DNA of 7,629 nt from a virus. Taxonomy: Monodnaviria; Loebvirae; Hofneiviricota; Faserviricetes; Tubulavirales. Below are positions 1,657 through 7,629 of this stretch, one piece after another. The DNA lies in IMG/VR virus record IMGVR_UViG_2574180160_000002; one strand, 5' to 3'. Each line of letters opens with the position of its first letter. The first letter of the stretch is position 1. Under the pieces are notes generated by a model, which was given only the letters and a program-made list of their open reading frames with translations, searched no databases and was not told the origin of the DNA. Position numbers and translations under genes: made by a program.

Positions 1657-3227
<1,571 letters not shown>

Positions 3228-3229
3228 TG

Positions 3230-4546
3230 TTACCCCCTGTCAACAAAAAGAACACGACGAACAATAAAGTAACAACGTAAAGTCGTTAATGCATAAAGAG
3301 CATACTCCAGTAAAGGTCTGATAATGTCATCATAAGCTGAAGCAAAATCAGATGTGTCAATTGTAAAATACAGCCCATTTATCCCCGGCAATGGAAATTC
3401 AATCTGAACTGGCTGAGCACCAGAACGACGCAGTTCACCAGTTAAAAGTAATTTATCAAAATTAATATAAAGCCACTCATCAGGAAGAAGACTGAAAAGC
3501 CTGTCAGCAAATGAAGACATATCATCCTGTTCAGGCGTTACAGAATGAATTAATTCATTTAACTGTGAATCATAAGAACTAACCGCACTGGTAATATCAT
3601 CCTGAGAAACAGAAAAAGTATTATTTAAATCATTCACTGAACCCCATATTGTTTTTAACCAGCCCAAAATACCATCAAACCAGCCATTGTCATCGCCGGA
3701 TGAGCCACCGGAGCCTGAACCTGAACTACCGCTACCGGATGAACCACCGGAGCCAGAACCTGAACCACCACTGCCGGATGAGCCGCCGGAACCCGAGCCG
3801 GAGCCACCGCTACCGGATGAACCACCGGAGCCAGAACCTGAACCACCACTGCCGGATGAACCGCCAGAGCCTGTCGTATTATCGCAATTGTCGTCGTCAC
3901 AACCAGAGCCACTCCCTGTATTGCCGTCAGGATTTTTATTGGCGGCAGCCACGCCAACAGAACGCATACTTTGAGCGATACAATTCCCGTCGTCATCACA
4001 CTCGTTAAAATCAATCAAATAACGACAGCCATTAATTTCCAGGGACTGAGATTCCTGCCCGTTACCCGTATCAACCCAGACAACATCACCAAGAGAATAT
4101 GAAAAGTCCTTAATTACCGGACGGGAAAGACAATTTTCTTCGGTAACCGGCTTATTATATTCAGGTGTCAAATCCCCCTCACCACCCTGAAAAGCAAGGG
4201 TGCAGGCTGTCCACTTTTGCTTGTCTGAATCCCAGACTTTATATGCTGACCACCGGGCACGGACAAAAGACCCGACAGTCGAAGGTGCATTAACAGGCGT
4301 GGAAAGTGGCACACCACAATAATGAATTATTCCGGAACATGCGTCATAACTGCCCGAACCACAGAAAAGATGACCGGCCGCCCTGGCTAATTTAATCGAC
4401 GTCCCCGCGTCCGAATAATCTGTCCTGCAGGATGAATGGCCTGCACACTGAACAAGTGCATCCGGATTTTCTTTCTCTTCAGCGAAAGAAAACGAGGAAA
4501 AGAACAAAAACAGAAGCGGAATAATAAAGTGAATCAAACAAAACAC
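3230..4546 (-). CDS. III: Adsorption / minor coat protein pIII-like, 438 aa
   Basis: Hydrophobic N-terminal signal-like sequence (..IIPLLFLFFSSFSFA), Cys-rich N-terminal domain, internal Gly/Ser-rich linker made of tandem repeats, hydrophobic C-terminal anchor (YALYALTTLRCYFIV). Position after gene VIII and before VI. Start is uncertain: GTG at 4544-4546 overlaps the AGGAG; TTG at 4535-4537 has better spacing (AGGAG-8nt-TTG). Confidence 0.8.
   Translation of the reverse strand: MFCLIHFIIPLLFLFFSSFSFAEEKENPDALVQCAGHSSCRTDYSDAGTSIKLARAAGHLFCGSGSYDACSGIIHYCGVPLSTPVNAPSTVGSFVRARWSAYKVWDSDKQKWTACTLAFQGGEGDLTPEYNKPVTEENCLSRPVIKDFSYSLGDVVWVDTGNGQESQSLEINGCRYLIDFNECDDDGNCIAQSMRSVGVAAANKNPDGNTGSGSGCDDDNCDNTTGSGGSSGSGGSGSGSGGSSGSGGSGSGSGGSSGSGGSGSGSGGSSGSGSSGSGSGGSSGDDNGWFDGILGWLKTIWGSVNDLNNTFSVSQDDITSAVSSYDSQLNELIHSVTPEQDDMSSFADRLFSLLPDEWLYINFDKLLLTGELRRSGAQPVQIEFPLPGINGLYFTIDTSDFASAYDDIIRPLLEYALYALTTLRCYFIVRRVLFVDRG
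3696..3872. repeat. Tandem 39-bp coding repeat (about 4.5 units; 78-bp higher-order period) encoding the Gly/Ser linker of pIII
   Basis: Units start with ccggatga at 3696, 3735, 3774, 3813 and 3852. Units 2 (3735-3773) and 4 (3813-3851) are identical. Encodes (GGSSGSGGSGSGS)n on the minus strand; reverse frames give the PDEPPEPEPEPPL artefact ORFs. Confidence 0.9.
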
Positions 4547-4558
4547 TCCTGGTATGAT

Positions 4559-4582
4559 TAAAAAAGCGCCCCGGAGGGCGCT
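4559..4582 (-). terminator. Rho-independent terminator downstream of gene VIII
   Basis: Perfect 7-bp GC-rich stem (4565-4571 agcgccc pairing with 4576-4582 gggcgct; loop cgga), followed on the minus strand by a T-run (plus-strand aaaaa at 4560-4564). Lies 16 nt after the pVIII stop and immediately before the pIII ribosome-binding site, as for the strong terminator after gene VIII in Ff phages. Confidence 0.6.
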
Positions 4583-4597
4583 GTCATTAAATAACTA

Positions 4598-4858
<261 letters not shown>

Positions 4859-4864
4859 TTAAAA

Positions 4865-5035
4865 TTAATTAACAGCATCACTGAACATCCGGCAGACCAG
4901 AGTGAAAATAACACCAAGACCAAAGCCAAGAAGCCAGCAGACAATCCAGACATAAAGAACGGACCAGTAAAGCTCCCCGTCCTGTACGCCAGAATTCAGT
5001 GCGGATAAAACACCGCTGAAATCAAATTCAGTCAT
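4865..5035 (-). CDS. Small hydrophobic protein (56 aa), candidate minor coat protein (pVII/pIX position)
   Basis: ATG at 5033-5035 overlapping the stop of the upstream small ORF (ATGACTGA). One strongly hydrophobic segment (WSVLYVWIVCWLLGFGLGVIFTLV). Position between the gene-V-position ORF and gene VIII. No clear Shine-Dalgarno; an alternative GTG start at 5068 gives 67 aa. Confidence 0.4.
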   Translation of the reverse strand: MTEFDFSGVLSALNSGVQDGELYWSVLYVWIVCWLLGFGLGVIFTLVCRMFSDAVN

Positions 5036-5168
5036 AATAACGCTGAACAGTAATGCTTTGTGAGTCACAGGCGCGAATCAGTTTTATTCCGATGCCAAAA
5101 CCTGAAGAAAATAAAATCATTGCAGGCGCAGCAAATAAAACAAAGTTCAGAAAATCAGCGTCAGACAT
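5028..5168 (-). CDS. Small hydrophobic protein (46 aa), candidate minor coat protein (pVII/pIX position)
   Basis: ATG at 5166-5168, 4 nt after the stop of the 141-aa ORF; weak AAAGG upstream. MSDADFLNFVLFAAPAMILFSSGFGIGIKLIRA... has one hydrophobic segment. Tight packing with neighbours is typical of the inovirus VII/IX region. Confidence 0.4.
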   Translation of the reverse strand: MSDADFLNFVLFAAPAMILFSSGFGIGIKLIRACDSQSITVQRYYD

Positions 5169-5172
5169 ATCA

Positions 5173-5598
5173 TCAGCCTTTTTCTTTACCTGCGGGCAGT
5201 GCACCCAGCGGCTGACCGTCAAAACGTTTCATGGAGCCGGAAATAAAACGATACCAGACACCATGACGTTCTGAGCCTGTCGACCATGAGTTAACATCCA
5301 CCGTGAGATAAACAGGTTTGCCCTGCAAATCAGGACATGAATTAAAAAATTTAAAATCCTCCTCAGTACAGGAAAAGCGCTCATGCTCCTCACGGCGGAC
5401 TTTTAATTTTCGATCCTCATACGGATAGGCAATAACAATGGCATATTTGGGTTTAGCCTCAGGGTTATAATGAGAACCCGTGGGTTTTAACTCCTCATCA
5501 TTTATGACAGTGGCGTGAATAAAATATCCCGCCATTGTCATGCCTGAGGTAAAACCCTCAGGGGAAGGAAACGGAAAACTGTCGTAAATTTGATTCAT
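5173..5598 (-). CDS. Hypothetical 141-aa soluble protein in the gene-V (ssDNA-binding protein) position
   Basis: ATG at 5596-5598 with GAGGAG 6-7 nt upstream; stop at 5173-5175. No signal peptide or transmembrane segment. Lies directly downstream of rep, where inoviruses encode the ssDNA-binding protein, but it is longer than Ff gV (87 aa) and I see no obvious similarity to it. Confidence 0.6.
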   Translation of the reverse strand: MNQIYDSFPFPSPEGFTSGMTMAGYFIHATVINDEELKPTGSHYNPEAKPKYAIVIAYPYEDRKLKVRREEHERFSCTEEDFKFFNSCPDLQGKPVYLTVDVNSWSTGSERHGVWYRFISGSMKRFDGQPLGALPAGKEKG

Positions 5599-5628
5599 AA
5601 ATCAGACTCCTCAATGTTAAAAATTCAG

Positions 5629-7629
<2,001 letters not shown>

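Follow-up and report, generated by a model that had tools for sequence, protein, structure and literature searches.

We propose that the 141-aa ORF at positions 5173 to 5598 (minus strand) of the DNA analysed here encodes the ssDNA-binding protein of a filamentous phage: a functional analogue of the Ff gene V protein (gVp), with a predicted OB fold that is nearer to the cellular SSB and PriB proteins than to gVp itself. We put the probability of this reading at about 0.7. It is favoured because the ORF is a real gene, because it holds a conserved core position, because its predicted fold is an SSB-like OB fold and because no alternative SSB was found.

Gene order and occurrence of the prophage

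The window, by which we mean the whole stretch of 7,629 nucleotides, represents a nearly entire filamentous (inovirus) prophage with all genes on the minus strand. Comparison with the M13 annotation revealed the Ff order gII-gV-gVII-gIX-gVIII-terminator-gIII-gVI-gI-gIV. The first position is filled by a 666-aa gpA-type (HUH) rolling-circle Rep (5629-7629), which matches Pfam PF05840 (Phage_GPA, E 5.9e-49) and phrog_91, 'nicking at origin of replication' (E 5e-129), and which is, on these sequence matches, a replication initiator of the P2 gpA type. As the preliminary description had stated, the 141-aa ORF follows rep directly, in the gene V position. In the ORF list and its translation the ATG lies at 5598-5596, 30 nt past the Rep stop, and the stop codon (5175-5173) is included in the coordinates given above. 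Direct reading of the sequence also bore out the strong ribosome-binding site that had been described, a GAGGAG Shine-Dalgarno element at 5612-5607 on the minus strand, separated from the ATG by an 8-nt spacer.

Two small hydrophobic proteins in gVII/gIX-like positions follow. The first, of 46 aa (5028-5168; maximum KD of the translation 1.93), has its ATG 4 nt past the stop of the 141-aa ORF; the second, of 56 aa, is encoded at 4865-5035 (maximum KD 2.39), and both are annotated CDS in a close relative. The precursor of the major coat protein (4598-4840; 80 aa when counted from the ATG at 4840) has a signal-peptide-like N-terminus, a hydrophobic core and a basic C-terminus, and weakly matches phrog_1646, the major coat protein (E 0.0035). 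Directly 3' of the coat gene, between it and the gIII-like gene, a consensus scan located a GC-rich hairpin on the minus strand (4565-4582; AGCGCCC-TCCG-GGGCGCT, a 7-bp stem with 6 GC pairs) that is followed by TTTTT. This hairpin is terminator-like by its sequence and would end the Rep-SSB-coat block in the manner of the Ff terminator after gVIII. Beyond it are encoded a 438-aa Gly/Ser-repeat protein in the gIII position (3230-4546), a 118-aa protein in the gVI position (2871-3227), Zot/gI (1657-2868) and the secretin (1-1209). An Rfam scan of the whole window returned nothing.

Within the gIII-like gene, positions 3695-3873 hold tandemly repeated units of 39 and 78 nt (2.3-4.5 copies), which give the putative adsorption protein a (GSGGSSGSGGSGS)n linker of Gly and Ser. 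Related E. coli prophages cease aligning at these repeats, and many of the matches span only 3695-7629.

E. coli chromosomes match the window at 95-98% identity across 80-91% of its length, and the Rep gene was detected in 48 of 5426 complete E. coli genomes (~1%), mainly from human isolates. A search of the phage collection with the window found no matching record; a CUS-1/YpfPhi-like identity had been expected for the phage, and the relation to CUS-1 was not confirmed. Strain 100416 (locus L001, NZ_CM128593.1, 1-16438) carries a 98%-identical prophage as two head-to-tail copies ~8.7 kb apart. Tandem arrays are typical of XerCD/dif-integrating inoviruses. Between Rep and the secretin of the next copy, L001 encodes a divergently transcribed 62-aa ORF (7662-7850) with no Pfam match, which may be a repressor.

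When every other substantial ORF of the window was scanned against Pfam, no further SSB or gV candidate was detected. The same was true of two small ORFs of L001, including the 62-aa ORF in the ~0.7 kb that is absent from the window, neither of which matched an SSB/gV family in Pfam. The separate gV homologue that the preliminary description had raised was found neither in the window nor in this remaining ~0.7 kb of the closely related tandem prophage.

A conserved gene downstream of gpA-type Reps

The claim that the ORF is coding was upheld. When compared with six homologues (55-98% identity), it gave dN/dS values of 0.11-0.19 and is under purifying selection; moreover, the identical protein is present on 696 E. 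coli contigs. On these two grounds we regard the ORF as a real gene. Its product matches phrog_30648, a family of unknown function, over residues 1-141 of 141 (E 1.6e-95), all 26 aligned family members match this phrog over their own full length, and 'hypothetical protein' is the label of the 141-aa protein in every source. The protein has a pI of 6.1, and its translation and hydropathy profile contain no signal peptide and no hydrophobic segment. It ends in ...RFDGQPLGALPAGKEKG (...LPAGKEKG) and contains the conserved motif RFDGxPL.

The phrog_30648 family is very small. Three word-indexed searches covering 5.8 billion proteins, together with an exhaustive profile search over 1.84 billion representatives, saturated at ~25 clusters, and iteration over these billions of proteins gave no connection to any annotated family. 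The hosts are Escherichia, Providencia, Xenorhabdus and one Psychromonadaceae MAG. Even the distant members, P0023 (24% identity) and P0027 and P0020 (33%), lie in inovirus prophages, each after a PF05840 Rep and before coat, Zot and secretin genes. All family members found have a gpA-type Rep before them, and the position after Rep is kept down to 24% identity.

The genomic context was also assessed independently of the family, using an alignment of the Reps as the query in IMG/VR and in GTDB species genomes. In IMG/VR, a family member lay directly downstream of Rep in 19 of 20 loci; in the remaining locus the gpA is 27% identical and its contig, of 37.8 kb, does not belong to an inovirus. 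Among GTDB species genomes with a Rep at least 36% identical, six of seven loci (Xenorhabdus species and the Psychromonadaceae MAG) possess a family member, while the seventh (L032), which lacks one, appears degraded. More remote gpA relatives (26-31% identity, from Pseudoalteromonas and other bacteria) are without a family member. Since the position after the gpA-type Rep is conserved, we conclude that the gene is a core part of the replication module of gpA-Rep inoviruses and not variable cargo.

These observations bear on the suggestion, made in the preliminary description, that the ORF might be a cargo or regulatory gene. In such a case the product would be an OB-fold protein with a role other than DNA binding, for instance in host interaction, as a toxin B subunit-like or protein-binding module. 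Cargo genes are variable and reside at module boundaries, whereas this gene occupies the same core position in different genera and has a dN/dS of ~0.1-0.2. A PADLOC search of the protein found no match, and a signal peptide and a hydrophobic segment are, as stated above, both absent. We therefore consider a non-DNA role improbable.

Several further features were observed at the loci of relatives. Xenorhabdus-type relatives encode, between Rep and the family member, a conserved ORF of 68-80 aa (MSFSLYA.YI.MD.LL.CRDAAS...; L031 5522-5758, L033 5546-5752, L034 5549-5758 and L035 5522-5764) that has no counterpart in the E. coli phage of the window; a 69-aa ORF is situated at the same position in L006 (4528-4737). 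In a Psychromonadaceae-type ENA contig (L003, 1153-5326), one prophage copy has its gpA-type Rep interrupted, directly 5' of the family member, by an IS21-family insertion (IstA/IstB genes); next to it, the same contig carries another inovirus of a different kind, whose Rep is Rep_trans-type. In Providencia manganoxydans (L004, 2774-4126), two genes, one with a SIR2_2 domain and one with DUF6953, directly flank the inovirus Rep region on its upstream side and may represent defence cargo at the prophage boundary.

Predicted fold and relation to known ssDNA-binding proteins

The absence of sequence similarity to Ff gV, noted in the preliminary description, held under more sensitive comparison. 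The Ff gV family PF02303 gave no match at E<=10 in 13 family members, while M13 gV itself matched PF02303 at 1.3e-42. When the family profile was aligned by hhalign with the SSBs of M13, Pf1, Pf3 and VGJφ, probabilities were between 0.2 and 0.45% (0.3% for M13 gV). Likewise, the 13 members did not match PF00436 (SSB) at E<=10, nor the Pfam families PF17878 (Pf3-type) and PF06950 (DUF1293, VGJφ-type), and a profile search of PDB sequences with the family recovered no SSB or PriB chain at E<=10. Searches of NCBIfam with the 141-aa protein, and of the phage collection by tblastn, found nothing.

One sub-threshold match was recurrent. PF17426 (Putative_G5P) scored 13.6 bits against the 141-aa protein (E 0.075), which does not reach its gathering cut-off of 25 bits; the match was seen again in 10 of the 13 close members (best E among the 13, 0.006) and in none of five distant ones. 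Residues 85-122, the beta4-beta5 region, align with profile positions 65-102. PF17426 proteins have Rep_1 rolling-circle Rep genes as neighbours on SPHINX/BMMF group 2 sequences, small circular DNAs isolated from foods (PMC10378824), a rolling-circle replicon context like that of the 141-aa family. Remote homology between the two families is possible on this sequence match. The Acinetobacter plasmid p4ABAYE was guessed to carry a PF17426 member, and none was found there.

A different lead came from the comparison of the family profile with PDB sequences, in which aminopeptidase C (5wdk, 3pw3) was matched at E 0.007, followed by cruzain and ficin at E ~0.5-1.6. The protein might on this basis be the remnant of a papain-like (C1) peptidase domain, and the motif through which these weak matches ran, V-N-S-W...G-x-W-Y, does resemble the papain Asn175-Ser-Trp177 region. 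However, the alignment registers were inconsistent and the catalytic residues are absent. As the fold search described below contained no papain-fold protein, we regard the resemblance as a coincidence of motif and the peptidase explanation as effectively refuted.

Structure prediction was performed with AlphaFold2. An alignment of 13 close sequences yielded an unusable model (pLDDT 38), and distant members were added for a run with 26 sequences, in which the best model reached a pLDDT of 81.5 and a pTM of 0.72 (69.5-81.5 across five models). The model comprises strands at residues 20-31, 52-62, 67-76 and 95-101, with a short helix after the first strand and a helix at 79-86, followed by a low-confidence loop (107-112) and a β5 region (113-125). 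The predicted order β1-β2-β3-α-β4-β5 is that of an OB fold, a five-stranded barrel with a helix between beta3 and beta4.

Foldseek comparison of the model with the PDB ranked SSBs, mitochondrial as well as bacterial, and PriB highest, with E values from 1.5e-3, and SSBs were more numerous than PriB among the fold matches. Against viral models, nearly every named match was to a phage SSB, among them the SSB of Thermus phage OH3, which is filamentous. Neither Ff gVp nor the Pf3 SSB was among the 50-60 fold matches listed. On present evidence the predicted fold is thus nearer the SSB/PriB subclass, which possesses the helix, than gVp. The preliminary description had offered a divergent OB-fold ssDNA-binding protein as one possibility and had proposed structure prediction and fold search as the check; the nucleic-acid-binding (OB) fold of the model, its SSB nearest neighbours and the conserved position after Rep favour that possibility. 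Within the model, the β2-β3 hairpin is long and carries a conserved basic tip (R63, K64, K66, R68, R69), and the aromatic residues F26, W105, W115 and Y116 are invariant or near-invariant in the family. From the sequence and the modelled secondary structure, we propose the basic hairpin tip (R63-R69) and these four aromatics as DNA-contacting elements.

Comparison with Ff gV reveals a shared slot and a divergent protein. Both genes come immediately after the replication initiator and immediately before the genes for two very small membrane proteins and for the major coat protein; both would encode a small, soluble OB-fold protein from a strong ribosome-binding site in a terminator-closed block. 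The adjacent Rep, however, is gpA-type here and gII-type in Ff, the pI is 6.1 as against 9.2, and the model differs from gVp in the helix between beta3 and beta4 and in long N- and C-terminal extensions. At 141 aa against the 87 aa of M13 gV, the protein is 62% longer, in agreement with the ~60% given in the preliminary description. The label 'atypical' that accompanied this figure is apt in relation to Ff, but as a statement about inoviruses it was overstated with respect to length. Inovirus SSBs belong to PF02303 (Ff), PF17878 (Pf3), DUF1293 (VGJφ) or, in the case of Pf1, to no Pfam family, and those known range from 78 to 144 aa; a length of 141 aa is therefore atypical only against Ff and not for Inoviridae.

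The Pf1/Pf4-type SSB, at 144 aa, with a near-neutral pI and without a Pfam family, is similar to the 141-aa protein in these respects, and its gene likewise precedes small-protein and coat-protein genes. It differs in a long Pro/Gln/Ala-rich C-terminal tail that the 141-aa protein lacks, and the hhalign probability was 0.45%. VGJφ ORF112 (112 aa, DUF1293) and CTXφ RstB are the gV-position proteins of integrative, XerCD-dependent filamentous phages and are, like the 141-aa protein, unrelated in sequence to Ff gVp; both reportedly bind ssDNA. The 141-aa protein is distinct from ORF112 in turn (hhalign 0.3%), and the Reps of VGJφ and CTXφ are of another type. The best structural matches, bacterial SSB, mitochondrial SSB and PriB (PF00436), are of comparable size (~100-140 residues) and share the predicted beta1-3/helix/beta4-5 topology, with no sequence similarity; the acidic C-terminal tip by which SSB proper interacts with other proteins is missing here. 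By sequence the 141-aa protein is outside the Ff, Pf1, Pf3, VGJφ and SSB/PriB families, while according to the model it shares their fold. It most probably also shares the job of the known inovirus and cellular SSBs.

Proposed role in replication and export

An ssDNA-binding protein in this position would act as follows. The 141-aa gene would be translated from its strong ribosome-binding site inside the Rep-to-coat transcription unit, and the protein would accumulate and coat the plus-strand ssDNA displaced in rolling-circle replication by the gpA-type Rep. Coating would block reconversion of the ssDNA to the double-stranded replicative form, and the resulting nucleoprotein rod would pass to the export machinery of Zot(gI) and the secretin; there the major coat protein would presumably replace the 141-aa protein on the ssDNA. 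DNA binding itself is part of what we infer here, as are cooperativity, the oligomeric state and any translational repression of Rep by the protein.

The main rival to this scheme, so ranked because the family is confined to gpA-type Reps, holds that the protein is an accessory factor of replication specific to gpA-type Reps, and that host SSB coats the progeny ssDNA; the preliminary description had likewise mentioned a partner of the gpA-type Rep. Such a factor could be a PriB-like OB-fold adaptor that assists in loading host helicase or primosome onto the origin, or else a modulator of Rep nicking. The family was seen only beside gpA-type inovirus Reps, although co-occurrence with a single Rep type would also be expected from vertical inheritance of a Rep and SSB module. 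PriB structures are among the good fold matches, but are outnumbered by SSBs.

Also consistent with an accessory factor is an element, common to small plasmids, of which the phage has two copies between the Zot and secretin genes. This 447-bp gap (1210-1656) contains no Pfam-recognisable ORF and harbours two direct copies of a 57-nt element (1248-1304 and 1587-1643) that share 93% identity at a spacing of 339 bp. Small plasmids of E. coli, Salmonella and Shigella (1.5-2.8 kb among the matches listed) contain sequence that is 91-96% identical to 1584-1656, and the queried region matched 353 plasmid records, mostly typed mobilizable. The motif TTCCGCTTCCTCG..CACT..CTCGCT..CGGTCG..GCGGCGAGCGG is one that we take to be the pBR322/ColE1 region holding the PriA (n') primosome-assembly site. 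On that reading, the pair of elements may represent a PriA-dependent complementary-strand origin in duplicate. No significant structure resulted when the 57-nt elements were folded as ssDNA. Against the accessory-factor explanation, the strong ribosome-binding site and the transcription unit shared with the coat gene suggest that the protein is made in stoichiometric and not catalytic amounts. We consider this explanation unlikely.

A more speculative extension concerns the origin of the protein. Inoviruses with a gpA-type Rep may have independently recruited an OB fold of the SSB/PriB type, in a non-orthologous replacement of the ssDNA-coating function in which no gVp-type protein was inherited. 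The recruited protein might work with Rep and the primosome-site-like element, and would then serve as both packaging SSB and replication co-factor. We offer this combined proposal tentatively, as rather unlikely in its entirety.

The assignment of the 141-aa protein as an ssDNA-binding protein leaves the understanding of filamentous-phage replication unchanged: most likely, on the predicted structure, the role is the ordinary one of coating ssDNA and the protein family that carries it is a new sequence family. It nevertheless provides a testable functional assignment for phrog_30648 and may permit better annotation of the gpA-Rep inoviruses of Escherichia, Providencia and Xenorhabdus. With it, one more sequence-unrelated family would join the inovirus ssDNA-binding proteins, a result that supports the view that OB-fold proteins which differ in origin occupy the gene V slot.
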